Origin: a virus
Length of the DNA stretch: 64,000 bases
Virus genome (UHGV): UHGV-1493261
Reading direction: 5' to 3' (one strand)
Of this stretch, positions 9,146 through 39,235 are shown piece after piece. Both the position numbers and the translations under genes were made by a program. Position 1 is the first letter of the stretch. Each line of letters opens with the position of its first letter. Below the pieces are notes generated by a model that was not told the origin of the DNA, did not search any database, and worked only from the letters and a program-made list of their open reading frames with translations.

Positions 9146-10075
9146 ATGTTTTACGAATTATTGATTTCTAAAGGCGGTAAACCGCATTTTATCAAGAAGT
9201 ATTTGAGGATGATTCAATCTTTCAAATATTCTGATGGTGACTACACTGAATTACACCACATCCTTCCCAAGAGCATGTTCCCTGAATATTCTAAAGATAA
9301 GATCAATTTGGCAAGACTTACTGGCAGGCAACATTATCTTGCCCATGTGTGTTTGGCCTTGGCTTTCCCGAATTCTGATATGGTATATGCTGTTATTTTG
9401 ATGAGCCGTGGGGGTAGGTATACACCAACGGGTATAAAATTTAATTCTCACCTTTACGAAAAGTTAAGGAAAGAATTTGGACAAAGAATATCCAAACTCA
9501 CAAAGGGTGTCTCTAAATGCGTCGGGGCAAACAACCCAATGTATGGGAGAAGAGGAAAGAATAATCCCCAATATAGATATAAGAGAACTCCAGAGCAAGT
9601 CAAGAAAATTACCAAAGGATTGATGAAAATCCATGAAAGGATGGCTTCTGATCCTGAATATAAAAGGCGGGTTTTAGAGAAACGCCGCGCCAACATGGAT
9701 TTAGAACAATTTTCTGAACGTGCCAGGAAAGCTAAACTTGGGGAACTTAATCCAAATCATGGCAAAGATATTACCAACACGTTTACCCCTGAACAACGAC
9801 AGAAACAAATAGAAGGTATTAGAAAAGCCCATTTATCAAAAATGCCCTGGGAGAAACCGCGTTGGTCTGATGAAAAGGACATGTATTGGGCGAAAGCTGA
9901 TAAATTCCTTGAAGCAATGAAAACAATGAAAAGAGCGGAAGCCCTCATGCATGTGTACGGAACAAAGGATTTGAAGGCTTTTAATGCGACAAACAGCATT
10001 ATCGAACGTTTCAATAGAGGGTGGGAACCTTTGAAATGTCCTAAATGGACAGAACGATACGGTTCTTCTGAATAA
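9146..10075 (+). CDS. HNH homing endonuclease with NUMOD-like repeats
   Basis: ELHHILPKSMFPEY...NLARLTGRQHYLAHV (HNH motif); NPMYGRRGKNNPQY and NPNHGK repeats. Visibly AT-rich codons compared with flanking genes. Free-standing between conserved genes. Confidence 0.8.
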   Translation: MFYELLISKGGKPHFIKKYLRMIQSFKYSDGDYTELHHILPKSMFPEYSKDKINLARLTGRQHYLAHVCLALAFPNSDMVYAVILMSRGGRYTPTGIKFNSHLYEKLRKEFGQRISKLTKGVSKCVGANNPMYGRRGKNNPQYRYKRTPEQVKKITKGLMKIHERMASDPEYKRRVLEKRRANMDLEQFSERARKAKLGELNPNHGKDITNTFTPEQRQKQIEGIRKAHLSKMPWEKPRWSDEKDMYWAKADKFLEAMKTMKRAEALMHVYGTKDLKAFNATNSIIERFNRGWEPLKCPKWTERYGSSE

Positions 10076-32954: not shown

Positions 32955-35669
32955 ATGTCAAAGCTAAGTTTCCTCCAGTTCATGCAGGAAAGAGATCAGT
33001 TGGACGAAGCGTTCAACTCCGCTCCGTATGAGCTGACTATGGGTAAGAAGAACGCAGGCGATGTGTTCTTCACCTTCGTCGACGAAGATGAAAAGGAATA
33101 CCGTATTCAGTTCTATACCCCTCAGGGGCTGGGCAAGAGCGTTCGTCAGGTTTTCATCGGTCAGAAGCGCGGCTCCGTCTATCCTGACGCCATCGCTCGC
33201 TTCAAGAACCCAATGCGCGTTATCGCTTCCATGATCGAAGCGACCAAACAATTCATGGCGACTCCTCTGGGCAAGACCATCGATGGCTTTGCTGTCAACT
33301 TCTCGAAGAAAGCGCTGGATCGCGGTATGACCCTAATTCCTAAGATCATCCGCCAGTCCGGCCTGAAACAAAAACTGAATGTCATGGACCTGACCTACGC
33401 GCCTGTCCCTGACCGTGGTTATGTGTGGCTGGTCCGCAAGGGTAAAGATCCGGCTCAGGTATTCGACGGTCCGAAGATGCAGGGTATCACCTGGGATGAT
33501 CCAGACAAGGTCGGCGACGTTCCGGTTCAGAATAATACTTCGGATGTGGGAGTTGGGGCTGGTTCTTCTGAAATCGAAGTCAACCGCGAGTGGTACAACA
33601 GCTCGGACACTGGTCTGGAGTTGAAGAGCGGGCGAGACCCGATTCGTGGAAACTACGTCCGCCTGATAAGCGGTTCGAAAGAAGTAGCCGCATTCTATGG
33701 TTATGATTTTGACAAATATCCAGACGGGACTGAGGTATCTTGGAATATGAAGCGCGGCTTCACCAACCAAGACTTGGTCGGTGCGTCCATGACCAAACAG
33801 AAGAAAGGCATGTACGATCAGTACACTTTCAAGAAAGGTGCTCAGATAATTCTGGTGGTGGACGTTGACACCAGCAATGACACCAGCAATGACACCAGCA
33901 ATGACAACGGTTGGAAACTCACAAAAGCCGATGCCACTCAACCAATGTTAGTATGGGCGGGGAAAGAAAAAGGTCGCTTAGTCACGGCAAATATCGCTCC
34001 CCACTACAATGAGCCGGGCGTGTATGTTGGCGCATACATGAATGAGAAACCTGTGCGTGGGCAAAGTGCTGATTTCATTGCTCGTCAGTTGAAATTACCA
34101 CAAGTCCCTATCAGTATCCTGAATGATTTCACCACGGCGTCCACAAAATTTTGGAAAGGTTCTCAGCAGAAGTCCGCGCCAGCTGACTCTAACACCACAA
34201 TCGGGGCAACCAGTATCGATCAATTGCGTGACAGCGGTTTCATCGCTCGTGTTCTGGGTATCATTGATGCCAACATTGACCAGAAAGCAAGCCATCTCCC
34301 AGGGGAAAGCATTAAGAAGATCGGACAGGCACGTTATCAAACTAAAGGTGGTCTGGTGATCATCGTCAGCTTCGATTCAGTCGATGGCAAGAATCTGACC
34401 TACAACGTGTTCTCTGAAATCGAAACTCAGCCTGGTGTCATCTCTGGCGATGCTCGTCTGGTGGCAAACAAAATCATGGAAACGATCACACACGTGGCCA
34501 AACATCAGTACACTGGCAAATGGGAAATTAGCGCAGTGCCAACAAGCGCTCCATACCCTATCAAAGCCATTCGCCGTTCTCGGGGCTGGGGTTATGTGGA
34601 AACCGCAAACTGGACTCTGAAAGTGTCCGACGCTGTCCTGAATCGTGTGAAGCCAGGGAACACTGCTCTGCTGGAACTCATCAAAGAACCTCCTCGTGGC
34701 AAGCACCTGCTGGTAATCATCCCAGAGAAGGGCGACAAGACCCTGATGCTGAAAGATCGTATTAGCGGGGCCATCTATGGTTCTATCGACCTGAATGCCC
34801 AGGGTGCTGATATGGTCAACTCTGGAACCCTGAAGATGCCACGCAACGCCATGGTGTTTGGCGAGACTGTCAACGGTATGTCTATCACTTGGTCTGGAAT
34901 CAATTTCCCGAAAACTGGGAAGTATGATGGTGCTGTATTGACCACGAATGTGACCTATTACTACGACAAAGGAAAAGTCGCGTTCACACCGATGATCTCC
35001 CAGAAAGGGCGGCTGCTGAACAATCCGAAGACATATGAACTTCCTTTGAATAAAGACATTGTTCAGGCATTGATCGATGAAATTTCTTCTAAAATGGAAA
35101 TGATATCTCGGAATATGCAAACTCTGAAAAGCACGTCGCATAATCCGAAACAAGTATTTTTGGACGACATTTCTGTTGACAACAACGGTTCAGTCCTTTG
35201 GCGCGGGTACGACATGGCGGATCGCCGCACTAATGATTTTATGTTGGGTATCCTGTCCAAAGAAACCGAGAGACTGGAGAAAGAGTCGAGTACTGCGAAG
35301 AAGACTGGTGCCGACCTTGCGGCATACGCCGACTCCATCCGCGACAACGCACCAAAAGGTCGCGACCTGGATTGGCAGATCTATGCAAGCCGTGATGGTC
35401 AGACTCTGAACGTGGACTGGGATATCACCTTCCGCCGCAACACAACTGAAGGGGCATATCGCGAGTTCAAAGCTCAGATTGACCGCGCCAACCAGTACCT
35501 GCAGACTCTGTACCGGGATGCGAAGTCCAAGGGTTACAACCCGACTGAACCAAACCTGATGACTCTGGCTAGCGCCCAGCAGTCTGACCAGTGGTCACAA
35601 GACAACGGGGAAAGCGCATACAGCGAGTACGAGCAGTCCCTGGGTGGAAACATGCAGATCAAGATCTGA
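32955..35669 (+). CDS. large hypothetical protein (904 aa) with internal DTSN tandem repeat
   Basis: AGGAGA RBS. No recognised catalytic motif. Perfect 12-nt x3 DNA repeat at 33867-33902 encoding (DTSN)3. Confidence 0.7.
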   Translation: MSKLSFLQFMQERDQLDEAFNSAPYELTMGKKNAGDVFFTFVDEDEKEYRIQFYTPQGLGKSVRQVFIGQKRGSVYPDAIARFKNPMRVIASMIEATKQFMATPLGKTIDGFAVNFSKKALDRGMTLIPKIIRQSGLKQKLNVMDLTYAPVPDRGYVWLVRKGKDPAQVFDGPKMQGITWDDPDKVGDVPVQNNTSDVGVGAGSSEIEVNREWYNSSDTGLELKSGRDPIRGNYVRLISGSKEVAAFYGYDFDKYPDGTEVSWNMKRGFTNQDLVGASMTKQKKGMYDQYTFKKGAQIILVVDVDTSNDTSNDTSNDNGWKLTKADATQPMLVWAGKEKGRLVTANIAPHYNEPGVYVGAYMNEKPVRGQSADFIARQLKLPQVPISILNDFTTASTKFWKGSQQKSAPADSNTTIGATSIDQLRDSGFIARVLGIIDANIDQKASHLPGESIKKIGQARYQTKGGLVIIVSFDSVDGKNLTYNVFSEIETQPGVISGDARLVANKIMETITHVAKHQYTGKWEISAVPTSAPYPIKAIRRSRGWGYVETANWTLKVSDAVLNRVKPGNTALLELIKEPPRGKHLLVIIPEKGDKTLMLKDRISGAIYGSIDLNAQGADMVNSGTLKMPRNAMVFGETVNGMSITWSGINFPKTGKYDGAVLTTNVTYYYDKGKVAFTPMISQKGRLLNNPKTYELPLNKDIVQALIDEISSKMEMISRNMQTLKSTSHNPKQVFLDDISVDNNGSVLWRGYDMADRRTNDFMLGILSKETERLEKESSTAKKTGADLAAYADSIRDNAPKGRDLDWQIYASRDGQTLNVDWDITFRRNTTEGAYREFKAQIDRANQYLQTLYRDAKSKGYNPTEPNLMTLASAQQSDQWSQDNGESAYSEYEQSLGGNMQIKI
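33867..33902 (+). repeat. perfect 12-nt x3 in-frame tandem repeat (GACACCAGCAAT)
   Basis: Encodes DTSN-DTSN-DTSN inside the 904-aa ORF. Confidence 0.8.
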
Positions 35670-35676
35670 TCATCGA

Positions 35677-35694
35677 AAGCCCCTTCGGGGGCTT
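35677..35694 (+). terminator. terminator-like hairpin abutting late promoter
   Basis: AAGCCCC / TTCG / GGGGCTT directly followed by ATAAATAA (TATAAATA at 35694-35701). Confidence 0.45.
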
Positions 35695-35701
35695 ATAAAT
35701 A
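35694..35701 (+). promoter_or_regulatory. T4-type late promoter TATAAATA
   Basis: Exact TATAAATA on the + strand, 25 nt upstream of ATG 35726, abutting the terminator hairpin of the 904-aa gene. Confidence 0.5.
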
Positions 35702-35725
35702 ACTGAAATCCCCGAGGAGATTAAG

Positions 35726-36031
35726 ATGAAACCGTTTATCGAATATTTTAAAGAACAAGCCGCTAAACCTCAGACCCATGCTGGTGTCCAGGGTAAGACC
35801 GTATCCATCACCAAGCAAGCTGACGGCACCCAGTGGTGTTCCGGCGCTACCGTGACCCAGATCACTCCTGACAATCAGGCGGATGTCTACAACCTGGAGT
35901 TAACCAACGGCAACACCATCAAGGTGAAGCTGACCCCAGACCAGACTCACGGTATCTCCCAAGGTCAGGAAGTCGTTGCTGTCCATGACGGTTTCGAATT
36001 CTTCTTTGGCAAGCCTGCCGACAAAGACTAA
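35726..36031 (+). CDS. hypothetical protein, probably late-expressed
   Basis: 101 aa, GAGGAG RBS. Exact TATAAATA on the + strand 25 nt upstream. Confidence 0.5.
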   Translation: MKPFIEYFKEQAAKPQTHAGVQGKTVSITKQADGTQWCSGATVTQITPDNQADVYNLELTNGNTIKVKLTPDQTHGISQGQEVVAVHDGFEFFFGKPADKD

Positions 36032-36061
36032 GTGAAACCATCAAGATGACTCTTGATCATA

Positions 36062-36093
36062 ATCCCCCTAAATACAGGGGGATTTCTTTTTCT
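36062..36093 (+). terminator. rho-independent terminator
   Basis: ATCCCCC / loop / GGGGGAT then TTCTTTTTCTG, between stop 36031 and ATG 36106. Confidence 0.6.
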
Positions 36094-36105
36094 GAGGACA
36101 ACATC

Positions 36106-36459
36106 ATGGTCAATGCGAGTATTTTCATCAACCGTGGACTGCTTGCTATAGCCCACTCTCATGCCTTGCACTTCGTTACAACGTCCTATGCCAAGCACAA
36201 GGCACTCGGGGAGTTCTACGGGGATCTAGAGGACTTGCTGGACACGTTTACCGAAGCATACATCGGTGCAGGTGGTCAGTATGTTCCATCATTCGAGAAT
36301 ATCAAATTGTACAACCCAGACCCTATCTCCTATATTAACAGTGTGGTGATAGACGTCGATGGCATCTACAAGCAGTGTGACTCCCACCTTCAGAGCACTC
36401 TTGACGATATCAAGACACTGTGCTATCAGACGATCTACAAACTGAAGCAGCTGTCGTAA
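36106..36459 (+). CDS. hypothetical protein, possible ferritin/Dps-like helical fold
   Basis: Start at ATG 36106 (GAGGACAACATCATG) downstream of the terminator at 36062-36093. HSHALHFVTTSYAKHKALGEFYGDLEDLLDTFTEAYIGAGG loosely resembles Dps helix A/B. Confidence 0.45.
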   Translation: MVNASIFINRGLLAIAHSHALHFVTTSYAKHKALGEFYGDLEDLLDTFTEAYIGAGGQYVPSFENIKLYNPDPISYINSVVIDVDGIYKQCDSHLQSTLDDIKTLCYQTIYKLKQLS

Positions 36460-36516
36460 GTCAATACGAAATAAAGGCATATAATTTTGCTCATTATTCA
36501 CCAAAAGGAAAGGACA

Positions 36517-37128
36517 ATGAGCAAAATCTTTATCCCGTCACACCGCGAAGGATGTGAAATCGCGGCCAACTACCTGCGCGGTCGCATGAACTGCGGCGCT
36601 GTCTTCATCGAGCCAAATTCGTTTGACAACAAAGAATCACCTGATGCCATCGGGTTCCGTTCCGGCGGTTGCTCTATCCTGATGGAAGTGAAGGTGTCTC
36701 GCTCTGATTTCCTTACCGACAAGAAGAAGCCTCATCGCATGGATCCGACGACGGGCATGGGCGCATACCGCTTTTATGTCTGCCCTCAGGACGTGATCAG
36801 GGTTGAAGACCTACCACCGAAGTGGGGGCTGTTCTACTTCACACCCCGCAAGTCCCTGATGCCAGTTCATGTGCCAGACATGCGGTACTCTTTATTGTCA
36901 TCACCAGATCATTATCAGAAGTACCTTGATGAACAGATCAAGAGAGGAAGAACCGTTACTCGGCATATGCGCAGCTACATGGAACTCCTCGAAGGCTTCG
37001 CCCACTTTGAGCGCAACACTGCCGGGGAGCAGAATATCCTGTATGGGGCTTGGCGCCAACTGTGTATAGCTCAAAGTCGTGGTGTAGACTATACTGTGAC
37101 CGAAGTGTTCCAGAGGCCGAAGATCTAA
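36517..37128 (+). CDS. hypothetical protein, possible PD-(D/E)xK nuclease
   Basis: Start at ATG 36517 (AAGGAAAGGA RBS). PDAIGFRSGGCSILMEVKVS gives a D...E.K arrangement. Stop overlaps the HNH gene start (TAATG). Confidence 0.45.
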   Translation: MSKIFIPSHREGCEIAANYLRGRMNCGAVFIEPNSFDNKESPDAIGFRSGGCSILMEVKVSRSDFLTDKKKPHRMDPTTGMGAYRFYVCPQDVIRVEDLPPKWGLFYFTPRKSLMPVHVPDMRYSLLSSPDHYQKYLDEQIKRGRTVTRHMRSYMELLEGFAHFERNTAGEQNILYGAWRQLCIAQSRGVDYTVTEVFQRPKI

Positions 37129-37784
37129 TGAACTATCAAAAAATTCATGACGCTATAATAACCAGAGCCAGGGATAGAATTTTAACTGGTTACAAGGAAA
37201 AACACCACGTCATCCCTCTATCTCTTGGTGGTGAAGACAGGAACTACAATAAAGTTTCTCTCACAGCATCTGAACATTATATTATTCATCTTCTGTTGGC
37301 AAAAATTCACGGCGGGGTAATGGTCAGCGCATTTAAAAAGATGCGCCACTTGACCTCTAATCCTCCAAACAATAAAGAATTTGCCGCCAGGAGGGAATTG
37401 TTGTGTACGACAGCCGGAGAGAAAGCGAAAGATCCACAAAAACGGAAAAATCATTCTCTGAAAATGAAGGGTAGAAACCATACAGAATCTACCAAATTGT
37501 CAATATCTAATTCCATGACTGGGGAGAATAACCCAATGAAGGGGATACCTGCATGGAGGAATCCGACCAACATCAGCCGAGGAACCCATAAAAATTGGTT
37601 GGCGGCTGGAGAAATTTATGACTTGTACATCACAGGGAAATTTTTAAGAGTTATCGACCTCTTCAATGCTTGCAAATTGCCGACATCATACGGAACGGTT
37701 TCCACCATAAAAACAAAATTGGAATTGGGTTGGAAACCAAGGAAAGACGCGGATTGGTTGCAATTCTATGAGGAACACAAATGA
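37128..37784 (+). CDS. HNH homing endonuclease
   Basis: Start at ATG 37128 inside track ORF 37050. HHVIPLSLGG...N...SEHYIIHLL (HNH); GENNPMKG NUMOD-like. AT-rich codons. Inserted immediately upstream of the primase gene. Confidence 0.75.
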   Translation: MNYQKIHDAIITRARDRILTGYKEKHHVIPLSLGGEDRNYNKVSLTASEHYIIHLLLAKIHGGVMVSAFKKMRHLTSNPPNNKEFAARRELLCTTAGEKAKDPQKRKNHSLKMKGRNHTESTKLSISNSMTGENNPMKGIPAWRNPTNISRGTHKNWLAAGEIYDLYITGKFLRVIDLFNACKLPTSYGTVSTIKTKLELGWKPRKDADWLQFYEEHK

Positions 37785-38839
37785 AATTTCTCGACGAACA
37801 ATTCATAAATTACGTTGCTCCCAGACTCGATAAATTCAAGTGGGAACGTGTTGGGTCTGTCGCAAATTTTAGATGCCCGCTTTGTGGAGATTCTCTCAAA
37901 AGTGCTAATAAGCGACGCGGTTATTTTTTCTTCGATCGAGATAATGATTGCTTTCGGTTCAAATGTCATAATTGCCATAACATGAATGGCTGGTCATTTG
38001 AGTTCTGGCTGAAGAAGTTCGACGAACGCCTCTCAACAGAGTACAACATGGAGAAGTTCCGTCTGCTGGGTGATACTTCGGGCAGACCACTTCCTTCCCT
38101 GAAGCCGTTGCCAAAGCTGACACAGACCGCCCGTATTGGCTCAGTGGCGGCAAAACGCGACGAGAGCCTCCTCGGCAATATGCTACGACTTGATCTGCTA
38201 CCGCCTGACCATAAGGCTCGACAGTACGTACAGTGGCGTGGACTGCCGGATAGCACTTTGTCCCTCCTGTATTACACACAGCACTTCCGCCAGGATCTAC
38301 TCCAGTTCGAAACGAACCCTGAGAAGCAGCTGAAAATTCCCGATGACGAGCGCCTGGTAATCCCATTCTGGACTCAGGATGGTCGCATGAAGATCGTTCA
38401 GGGGCGTGCATTCGACAAGAATGCGACACTGCGCTACGCAACAGTCAAGCCCAAGGATGAAGACACTAAGGTCTATGGTGAAGACCGGGTGAACATTCAC
38501 AAAACCAAGCTGGTTGTGGAAGGTCCGATTGACAGCCTGTTCCTACCCAACTGTCTTGCATCGGCCGACGCTGATCTACTGAGCGTGAAGGGTGACATTT
38601 ATATCCCTGATAATCAGTACCGGAACCCGCAGGTATGTGATGGCATTCAGAAGATGATAGATAAAGGTGTCAAGGTCGTCCTCTTCCCGCCGAATATTCC
38701 GTGGAAGGACATCAATGATATGGTCATGCCTTCGAAGGGTAACATGGCCATACGAGACCTCCTGAAGCTGATCGCCCAGAACGTCTACCAGGGGATGGCT
38801 GCATCACTGCAATTTGCTGAACTGAGGAAAGTGAGATGA
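37781..38839 (+). CDS. gp61: DNA primase (gp61-like)
   Basis: FRCPLCGDS zinc ribbon; LVIPFW, KVYGEDRV, VEGPIDSLF match T4 gp61 (RCPVCGDS, LVIPIYN, KIYGVERV, LEGPIDSLF). GAGGAA RBS. Confidence 0.85.
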   Translation: MKFLDEQFINYVAPRLDKFKWERVGSVANFRCPLCGDSLKSANKRRGYFFFDRDNDCFRFKCHNCHNMNGWSFEFWLKKFDERLSTEYNMEKFRLLGDTSGRPLPSLKPLPKLTQTARIGSVAAKRDESLLGNMLRLDLLPPDHKARQYVQWRGLPDSTLSLLYYTQHFRQDLLQFETNPEKQLKIPDDERLVIPFWTQDGRMKIVQGRAFDKNATLRYATVKPKDEDTKVYGEDRVNIHKTKLVVEGPIDSLFLPNCLASADADLLSVKGDIYIPDNQYRNPQVCDGIQKMIDKGVKVVLFPPNIPWKDINDMVMPSKGNMAIRDLLKLIAQNVYQGMAASLQFAELRKVR

Positions 38840-39042
38840 CATTAGAAGAACTGAACAAACTGGACGACGGGGAGATCGTGCGGGGGTACTTGAAATCTCG
38901 TGAGGGGTATGTCCTATCTGGGGAAGAGTCTCCGAGTTTCATCCACGGCTGGAAGAATGGTCAGGTGGACTTCCATGGGGTTCCCATCAGTGCTGAGCAG
39001 GCCGAATTGGCTCGCGAGTTTGTAAGATTTCGCCCGAACTAA
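38836..39042 (+). CDS. hypothetical protein
   Basis: 68 aa. ATGA overlap with primase. Terminator at 39071-39095. Confidence 0.4.
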   Translation: MTLEELNKLDDGEIVRGYLKSREGYVLSGEESPSFIHGWKNGQVDFHGVPISAEQAELAREFVRFRPN

Positions 39043-39070
39043 AACTTTTTACTTCACATTACTTCCCTCC

Positions 39071-39095
39071 AGGCCTCGTCGAATGAGGCCTTTTA
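39071..39095 (+). terminator. rho-independent terminator
   Basis: AGGCCTC / GTCGAAT / GAGGCCT then TTTTAAAAT. Confidence 0.6.
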
Positions 39096-39133
39096 AAATA
39101 CTTCAAAAATATTTTAAAAAATTATTGAAAAGA

Positions 39134-39166
39134 CTTTACTATTCAATAATAGCGCACTATTATAAT
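39134..39166 (+). promoter_or_regulatory. sigma70/T4-early-like promoter (CTTTAC-N18-TATTATAAT) with A/T-rich UP region
   Basis: AAAATATTTTAAAAAATTATTGAAAAG then CTTTAC (39134-39139) and TATTATAAT (39158-39166), followed by GC hairpin 39175-39191. Confidence 0.5.
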
Positions 39167-39235
39167 TCACATAGGGCGGTAACACACCGCCGAATGAAAG
39201 TGAAACGCACCAACTACATTATGAGGAATTACATC

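Follow-up and report, generated by a model that had tools for sequence, protein, structure and literature searches.

The 64,000-nt viral DNA analyzed here (UHGV virus genome UHGV-1493261; the window) carries, directly 5' of its DNA primase gene, a putative free-standing HNH homing endonuclease gene of the T4 Mob type, an ortholog of the gene named F-LimV in Dickeya phages. We consider it very likely (probability of roughly 85%) that this gene is a precise insert that homes to the primase gene and carries with it a co-converted tract of that gene, and that the adjacent gene for a protein with a PD-(D/E)xK nuclease fold is a separate, resident gene. Megablast of positions 35700 to 39100 identified the window as a phage of the Ackermannviridae, subfamily Aglimvirinae. 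The best match was Escherichia phage YX22 (96.6% over the full length of the query), followed by Salmonella phage pSal-SNUABM-02 and then by 19 records of Dickeya Limestonevirus. In YX22, the closest genome, the HNH gene is still annotated as “hypothetical.”

The locus and its empty counterpart in related phages

The ORF listing and direct reading of the sequence place the PD-(D/E)xK, HNH, and primase genes in the same direction (Table 1), and related phage genomes have annotated counterparts of all three at equivalent positions. The stop codon of the PD-(D/E)xK gene shares one base with the HNH start (TAATG), and the HNH stop overlaps the primase ATG at 37781 as ATGA. An initial annotation, made from the sequence alone, had given the same coordinates and both overlaps, which we confirm. 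The GAGG upstream of the HNH start may function as a Shine-Dalgarno sequence, and an identical GAGG precedes the primase ATG in the HNH-less phages RPN242 and Ag3. For the primase, this role may be served by a GAGGAA within the HNH gene, at the equivalent place of which a sister cassette (see below) has AAGGAG.

Table 1. Features of the PD-(D/E)xK, HNH, and primase locus, in window coordinates
Feature	Position	Strand	Details
Upstream PD-(D/E)xK gene	36517..37128	+	ATG start; 203 aa; TAA at 37126-37128
GAGG, Shine-Dalgarno-like	37113..37116	+	11 nt 5' of the HNH ATG; read from the sequence
HNH gene (putative homing endonuclease)	37128..37784	+	ATG at 37128; 218 aa; TGA at 37782-37784
Insert relative to the RPN242/Ag3 empty site	37128..37780	+	Exactly 653 bp; from junction comparison and alignment gaps
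GAGGAA, Shine-Dalgarno-like, for the primase	37770..37775	+	Within the last HNH codons; 6 nt before the primase ATG
Primase gene (gp61-like)	37781..38839	+	352 aa; PHROG 47 “DNA primase,” 4.2e-78; annotated as primase in relatives
HNH-linked divergent tract, primase codons 4-67	37790..37981	+	Low identity and GC relative to RPN242
Conserved block MNGWSFEFWLKKF	37982..38020	+	Divergent tract stops abruptly here

Base composition changes sharply across the locus. GC content is 0.40 to 0.44 over approximately 37000 to 38000, compared with 0.49 for the whole window and ∼0.50 before the drop. By part, it is 0.52 in the upstream ORF, 0.41 in the HNH gene, 0.40 in the first 215 nt of the primase gene, and 0.52 in the primase remainder. 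A promoter and terminator scan of positions 35600 to 39200 gave counts no better than those for shuffled sequence, with no convincing promoter or terminator between the PD-(D/E)xK gene and the primase; the lack of a convincing promoter in this interval fits a promoter-less cassette.

A comparison of the locus across related phages, proposed in the initial annotation as a check, found that the HNH gene is absent from near-identical relatives with a clean empty site. In Escherichia phage RPN242 and Shigella phage Ag3, which lack the HNH gene, the 203-aa ORF ends in a stop codon that directly overlaps the primase ATG, and the site reads TAATGAAATTT. The junction is ...GATCTAATGAAATTTCTT in both phages and ...GATCTAATGAAC[HNH]CACAAATGAAATTTCTC in the window; in longer context, ...CCGAAGATCTAATGAAATTTCTTGACGAG... 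at the empty site corresponds to ...CCGAAGATCTAATGAACTATC...[HNH]...GAACACAAATGAAATTTCTCGACGAA... in the window. The sequence 5' of 37128 is identical to that of the HNH-less phages. Based on the spacing of the HNH and primase ATGs, 653 bp apart, and the presence of AATGAA at both borders of the insert (37127 to 37132 and 37780 to 37785), the HNH gene has taken over the start context of the primase, namely, a GAGG 11 nt upstream followed by TAATG(A). Its overlap with the PD-(D/E)xK stop is the former TAATG junction between that gene and the primase. At the sequence level, these comparisons show that the insertion was precise and lies at the translationally coupled junction of the resident PD-(D/E)xK gene and the primase.

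Identity of the two predicted nucleases

The HNH protein matched PHROG 655 (“homing endonuclease”) over its whole length (3.5e-53). Its only Pfam match was NUMOD3, at residues 115 to 139 (E = 1.1e-6; 28.8 bits against a cutoff of 20.4); the Pfam HNH models did not match, and NCBIfam matched neither this protein nor any other of the four tested, so that no curated HNH family model from Pfam or NCBIfam recognized it. The HNH motif itself is well conserved: HHVIPLSLGG...EHYIIH corresponds to residues 26 to 54, and alignments of 31 to 32 homologs revealed invariant E24, H26, H27, P30, N41, L45, H50, and H54, including the His...Asn...His catalytic motif. An AlphaFold2 (AF2) model places these residues in a strand-strand-helix at residues 24 to 61 (pLDDT above 93), the two strands and helix (beta-beta-alpha) surrounding an HNH motif, and the C-terminal half was modeled with low confidence. 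Single-sequence phmmer searches of the PDB with the HNH and PD-(D/E)xK proteins returned sub-threshold matches only, and family profiles were needed to reach PDB matches for both. The HNH family profile aligned to the HNH motif of McrA (6GHC; E = 1.1e-4) and also matched Cas8f-HNH fusions and a group II intron maturase.

In tblastn searches, the HNH protein matched T-even MobE and MobD at 34 to 50% identity over the N-terminal 60 to 140 residues, with E values of 2e-12 to 1e-16 for MobE of T6 and RB5. The order of an HNH domain followed by NUMOD-type DNA-binding motifs, together with this similarity, is that of the Mob enzymes. The position of the gene is likewise Mob-like: it lies exactly between a stop and a start codon, in neither an intron nor an intein. 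An intron-encoded origin was considered and rejected, since Rfam at a permissive threshold reported no family in 35600 to 39200 and therefore no group I intron. Recent duplication within the genome was also rejected. In a tblastn search of the window, the sole match to the HNH protein was a weak relative at 9146 to 10075, an HNH/NUMOD3-like ORF of 309 aa (27% identity over 129 aa; E = 0.032).

The initial annotation had described a second HNH endonuclease of the window directly 5' of the primase gene, with the above HNH motif and a NUMOD-like GENNPMKG. The ordinal is correct given the ORF at 9146 to 10075; both motifs are present, GENNPMKG inside the above-gathering NUMOD3 match; and the homing-type assignment is upheld by PHROG 655 and by orthology to the annotated F-LimV. 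LIMEstone1 ORF76 was named F-LimV in 2012 and described as MobE-like, free-standing, and of the HNH group, with a DNA primase downstream (Adriaenssens et al., PMC3296691), and the LIMEstone1 annotation places “F-LimV: homing endonuclease” between a 204-aa ORF and the primase. On the basis of that annotation and listing, the HNH gene already has a name in the literature. The HNH protein is 95.4 to 97.7% identical to the proteins of Dickeya phages and YX22. A literature search found no cleavage assay or biochemical characterization of F-LimV or its orthologs.

The upstream 203-aa protein falls into PHROG 631 (unknown function); its weaker matches include a “DNA repair protein” PHROG, and Pfam returned no match at E ≤ 0.1. 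It contains a textbook E...PD...ExK motif. The stretch PDAIGF...ILMEVKVS is present, with E40, D43, E57, and K59 invariant in 39 homologs, and across 52 database homologs the invariant set comprises H9, E40, D43, E57, K59, D64, D68, K71, and R74. The motif region, with its catalytic D...(D/E)xK residues, lies on predicted strands 44 to 48 and 52 to 58 of a restriction-endonuclease-like alpha/beta core in a confident AF2 model (pLDDT, 91.6; pTM, 0.87). The family profile matched 3DNX (SPO1766, MmcB-like; E = 1.8e-4) and, weakly, Cas4 SSO0001. The suggestion in the initial annotation that this protein has a restriction-endonuclease-like fold is borne out by the invariant E40/D43/E57/K59, the 3DNX match, and the AF2 model.

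A few homologs reach the Pfam MmcB-like and Hjc models, below threshold; 3 of 39 matched PF06319 (MmcB-like) weakly (best E = 5.4e-4), and the window protein falls short of the PF06319 family threshold. It is a related branch of the MmcB-like family and not a formal member. Caulobacter MmcB has been described as an SOS-induced PD-(D/E)XK endonuclease with a protective role against mitomycin C (PMC9578287), and by analogy the phage protein probably acts in DNA repair or processing. It differs from the MmcB-like proteins (PF06319; 3DNX SPO1766; Caulobacter MmcB) in several respects: it shares only 20% identity with 3DNX, carries an additional three-helix region toward its C terminus (residues ∼130 to 187), is phage encoded, and is translationally coupled to the primase in HNH-less relatives. 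Two distant homologs (P0031 and P0035) have unknown phage-like genes as neighbors and are not adjacent to a primase.

A primase tract linked to the HNH gene and its transfer between phages

The primase gene downstream of the HNH gene begins with a divergent tract. This tract is 72.6% identical to RPN242 at the nucleotide level and the rest of the gene 94.5%. In sliding windows, identity to RPN242 is 95 to 100% on both sides of the divergent region, falls to 65 to 78% over primase nt 1 to 201, and then abruptly returns to 100%. Codons 4 to 67 differ from RPN242 at 46 of 64 positions, 39 of the differences being synonymous and 7 non-synonymous (Y11N, A13S, L39T, F51Y, N55H, H66N, and Q67N-type); the next difference is at codon 99. 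The tract has a GC content of 0.40, compared with 0.50 in the HNH-less allele, and encodes the CxxC...CxxC zinc ribbon (C32, C35, C62, and C65). A tract-only BLAST search returned 22 records with at least 95% identity, from Escherichia, Salmonella, and Yersinia phages and 19 Dickeya phage records. Other Ackermannviridae match the tract at ∼74%, with the exception of four special cases (PC3, PH4, A221, and ZQ1).

We considered whether the low-GC tract might be unrelated to the HNH gene and reflect local mutation bias or selection on primase translation initiation. Its position would allow this, since the 5' ends of genes often have atypical codon usage and mRNA structure. Yet the primase start directly adjoins an ORF in all 22 tract records (15 label this ORF a homing or HNH endonuclease and 7 hypothetical), synonymous divergence is saturated within the tract compared with a dS of 0.24 beyond an abrupt boundary, and the tract is 96 to 97% identical between genera whose flanks are ∼70 to 80% identical. 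An origin independent of the HNH gene is therefore extremely improbable. We instead interpret the tract, by comparison of alleles, as a presumptive co-conversion tract and the likely cause of target-site immunity.

Phages of other genera carry related cassettes at the same junction. A sister HNH gene (61 to 62% amino acid identity) is found there in the Klebsiella Taipeivirus phages Trex_ER12 and Magnus and in the Salmonella Kuttervirus phages Se-I, Se-J, and Se-N. From the last ∼15 to 20 nt of the PD-(D/E)xK gene to primase nt ∼205, Se-J is 96 to 100% identical to Trex/Magnus, whereas its flanks are 62 to 80% identical to the Klebsiella phages and 96 to 100% identical to the HNH-less CBA120. 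This difference indicates that the HNH gene and the primase 5' tract (∼205 bp) move as one cassette. When the PD-(D/E)xK, HNH, and primase genes of Se-J were used as the query, at least 80% of the query was covered by ∼10 of 181 Kuttervirus-type records, including the full cassettes of Taipeivirus, and the remaining records were without a full-length HNH gene. A third HNH allele (75% amino acid identity) is found at this site in L012, a metagenomic contig of 67 kb; the allele has a GC content of 0.38, and primase nt 1 to 201 in the same contig have a GC content of 0.41, compared with 0.53 for the rest of the gene.

The last diagnostic difference lies at primase nt 199 to 201 in the Aglimvirinae cassette and likewise in the Kuttervirus/Taipeivirus cassette, and in both the tract junction falls within nt 201 to 215, at the start of the MNGWSFEFWLKKF block. 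This block is the recombination junction; cleavage is predicted to occur near it or upstream of it. The shared end suggests a cut near nt 200, or equally a favored recombination point; alternatively, it could reflect one ancient event per lineage and not the position of the cut. The mobile segment extends from the HNH start to approximately primase nt 201 to 215, that is, into the primase and not upstream.

Other relatives record decay and loss. Salmonella phage allotria retains a 165-bp HNH remnant, produced by internal deletion, and a Taipeivirus-type primase tract. Escherichia phages PC3, PH4, A221, and ZQ1 have no HNH gene, and their primase 5' region is 91% identical to the window tract, with an Ag3-like patch at approximately nt 63 to 107. 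In the three of these examined for it (PC3, A221, and ZQ1), the PD-(D/E)xK gene is degraded, and the equivalent of window positions 36543 to 36960 is missing; the group shows that this gene is dispensable. At the same junction, Shigella phage Gloob and Salmonella phage Chennai have an unrelated ORF of ∼92 aa and a “sensitive”-type primase allele. We considered whether Gloob gp86 might be an HNH remnant and rejected this; it shows no similarity to the HNH gene and is a different small ORF, common to phage Chennai.

The initial annotation had also raised the idea that the two nuclease genes form one composite mobile unit and move together. The single base shared by the two ORFs (TAATG), the nuclease folds of both proteins, and the fact that both genes are missing or degraded in PC3, A221, and ZQ1 are compatible with such a unit, but the remaining comparisons argue strongly against it. 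HNH-less Aglimvirinae and Kuttervirus phages (RPN242, Ag3, CBA120, Gloob, and Chennai) have an intact, syntenic PD-(D/E)xK gene, its GC content is 0.52 compared with 0.41 for the HNH gene, the segment transferred in Se-J starts only ∼15 to 20 nt before its end, and the window 5' of 37128 does not differ from HNH-less phages. We therefore regard joint movement as highly improbable and conclude that the PD-(D/E)xK gene, whose GC content is host-like, is resident in Ackermannviridae and lies outside the transferred segment.

Among about 261 Ackermannviridae records matching the locus, an HNH gene at least 95% identical to that of the window is present in 21 phage records and one 60 to 80% identical in 13. 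All 19 Dickeya phage records carry the gene, whereas most Aglimvirinae and about 95% of Kuttervirus records do not; a patchy distribution among close relatives, combined with a recognizable empty site, is characteristic of Mob-type genes. Compared with the YX22 and LIMEstone1 orthologs, the HNH gene has a dN/dS of 0.15 to 0.19, indicating purifying selection on its coding sequence. Homing endonucleases of Dickeya phages have been described as conserved in some cases, decayed in others, and in others present in certain members only (PMC6267328). At this locus, comparative sequence data establish presence/absence polymorphism, tract linkage, cross-genus transfer, decay and loss, and purifying selection.

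Purifying selection and fixed presence in Dickeya phages (19/19) could also be expected if the HNH gene had been domesticated for the benefit of the phage, for example, to exclude the markers of co-infecting competitors or degrade foreign DNA, and were not purely selfish. According to the homing-endonuclease literature, flanking markers can gain a selective advantage (PMC3296691, PMC6267328, and PMC2988022). Against this, the gene is absent from the majority of Aglimvirinae and nearly all Kuttervirus records, and it decays (allotria) or is lost (the PC3 group) without apparent harm. Domestication overlaps with homing and is compatible with it; as an account of the gene, we judge it distinctly unlikely.

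Proposed homing mechanism and comparison with known systems

Under the favored explanation, homing to the primase with a co-converted tract, the primase would be the target gene of the HNH endonuclease. In a mixed infection with an HNH-less relative, the enzyme would nick or cut the relative's primase gene within its first ∼200 to 215 nt. The break would be resected and then repaired from the HNH-carrying genome, and repair would copy in the HNH gene together with the DNA that separates the insertion site from the cut. The low-GC, recoded codons 4 to 67 would protect the carrier's own primase allele from being cut. Cleavage by the enzyme, the location of the cut, and immunity are predicted by analogy with characterized systems. 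Free-standing endonucleases cut hundreds of base pairs from their own gene, which makes co-conversion of the intervening DNA obligatory (PMC2988022). The comparative evidence, drawn from alleles and not from a genetic cross, supports such co-conversion of flanking target-gene sequence.

The comparative series traces the life cycle of a homing endonuclease, from empty and filled sites through cross-genus transfer and internal deletion to loss with the tract retained, and narrows the predicted cut-site window to primase nt 1 to 215. Each of the three HNH alleles (100%, 75%, and 61% amino acid identity) is tied to its own primase zinc-ribbon coding tract and moves with it between phage genera. 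Beyond passive hitch-hiking, these associations could reflect an arms race between endonuclease and target site on the primase zinc-binding domain, in which homing would swap the template-recognition domain and alter replication priming in the recipient. We consider this extension unlikely; if true, the 7 amino acid changes seen here would lie in the domain that sets primase template recognition. For annotation, the HNH gene should be labeled as an F-LimV-type homing endonuclease and the upstream gene as a PD-(D/E)xK, MmcB-like nuclease-fold protein, and any comparison or typing of these phages should count the first 200 bp of the primase gene as acquired horizontally. The element belongs to a well-understood class, has been annotated before, and will not surprise specialists in phage mobile elements.

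Among known systems, the intronless homing of T4 SegF/gene 56 and SegG/gene 32 matches the architecture of an HNH gene plus a ∼200-bp tract. The Seg enzymes cleave apart from their own gene, leading to co-conversion and localized marker exclusion (PMC2988022). They are GIY-YIG nucleases and not HNH enzymes, and the cleavage site here is only predicted.

A closer likeness is T4 MobE, encoded between nrdA and nrdB (Wilson and Edgell 2009, reviewed in PMC2988022), which has an N-terminal HNH domain with 34 to 40% identity over ∼130 aa to the window protein. Both genes are intergenic, lack a promoter of their own, and start by overlapping the upstream stop as UAAUGA; in T4, the overlap of mobE with nrdA has been interpreted as translational coupling (PMC2988022). 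In both systems, a neighboring essential gene of DNA metabolism is the target, with co-conversion of flanking DNA, which for the window we infer by comparison. The two differ in locus and target (nrdB in T4, the primase here), and their C-terminal halves are unrelated beyond the NUMOD3 region.

The nearest counterpart is F-LimV of Dickeya phage vB_DsoM_LIMEstone1. It represents the same gene, likewise placed with the 203/204-aa ORF on one side and the primase on the other, with a protein that is ∼95% identical, the same junction sequences, and a linked primase tract that is 96.5% identical. It comes from another host lineage; the window is nearest to Escherichia phage YX22 and RPN242-type Aglimvirinae, to whose flanking genes those of LIMEstone1 are only 87 to 92% identical.

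Features discussed in the text, by source and coordinates
Feature	Source	Coordinates	Strand	Remarks
gp86	Shigella phage Gloob	L007:3344-3628		
C133	Salmonella phage Chennai	L010:929-1204		
HNH-less locus	Escherichia phage PC3	L018:1554-2002		Same state in A221 (L019) and ZQ1 (L020)
HNH remnant ORF, 165 bp	Salmonella phage allotria	L009:915-1079		Annotated "homing endonuclease"
Third HNH allele locus	Metagenomic contig ERZ27263651 k141_99147	L012:2384-4715		
Other HNH, 309 aa	Window	9146-10075	+	HHILPKS...N...H; NNPMYG/NNPQY NUMOD3-like repeats
DUF5856/PHROG 858 protein	Window	36046-36459	+	Labeled "starvation-inducible transcriptional regulator" (Dps-like naming)
ORF upstream of the DUF5856 gene	Window	35726-36031		Compared with L003:1527-2345 and L004:1528-2346

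Recurrent insertion between the PD-(D/E)xK and primase genes

The junction between the PD-(D/E)xK gene and the primase gene, where the F-LimV-type HNH gene lies in the window, is occupied in Gloob by gp86 and in Chennai by C133, homologous ORFs of ∼92 aa with no relation to the HNH. The presence of this ORF there in both an Agtrevirus and a Kuttervirus marks the junction as a hot spot of recurrent insertion.

HNH-less, remnant, and divergent alleles

Escherichia phage PC3 and phages A221 and ZQ1 lack the HNH, and their PD-(D/E)xK gene is degraded, with an internal deletion of the counterpart of window positions 36543-36960. The 5′ tract of their primase gene still shares 91% identity with the low-GC, HNH-linked tract of the window and includes a patch at nt ∼63-107 that resembles the HNH-less relative Ag3. 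An intact primase ORF begins at L018:1797 in PC3; the records place the primase start at 1999, so that the zinc ribbon is lost from the annotation. In allotria, the remnant ORF is a Se-J/Taipeivirus-type HNH (the sister allele at this junction) shortened by internal deletion, and the linked primase tract is kept beside it.

The third HNH allele, from an uncultured Aglimvirinae-like phage, occupies the identical site and shares 75% amino acid identity with the HNH of the window. It is accompanied by its own low-GC primase tract, with ∼75% identity to the tract of the window and ∼75% to the HNH-less allele. The other HNH of the window, flanked by ORFs of 409 aa and 672 aa, shares only 27% identity with the HNH that starts at 37128, upstream of the primase gene, over 129 aa (E = 0.032).

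The DUF5856 gene and its upstream cassette

Upstream of the DUF5856 gene lies a single 101-aa ORF in the window, YX22, and RPN242, and two ORFs, of 189 aa and 80 aa, in LIMEstone1, Ag3, and Se-J. This stretch is another variable cassette, which accounts for the extra ∼490 bp in the LIMEstone1, Ag3, and Se-J records. The LIMEstone1 ortholog of the DUF5856 protein was reported as a confirmed structural (virion) protein, and the regulator label does not obviously agree with these LIMEstone1 proteomics.
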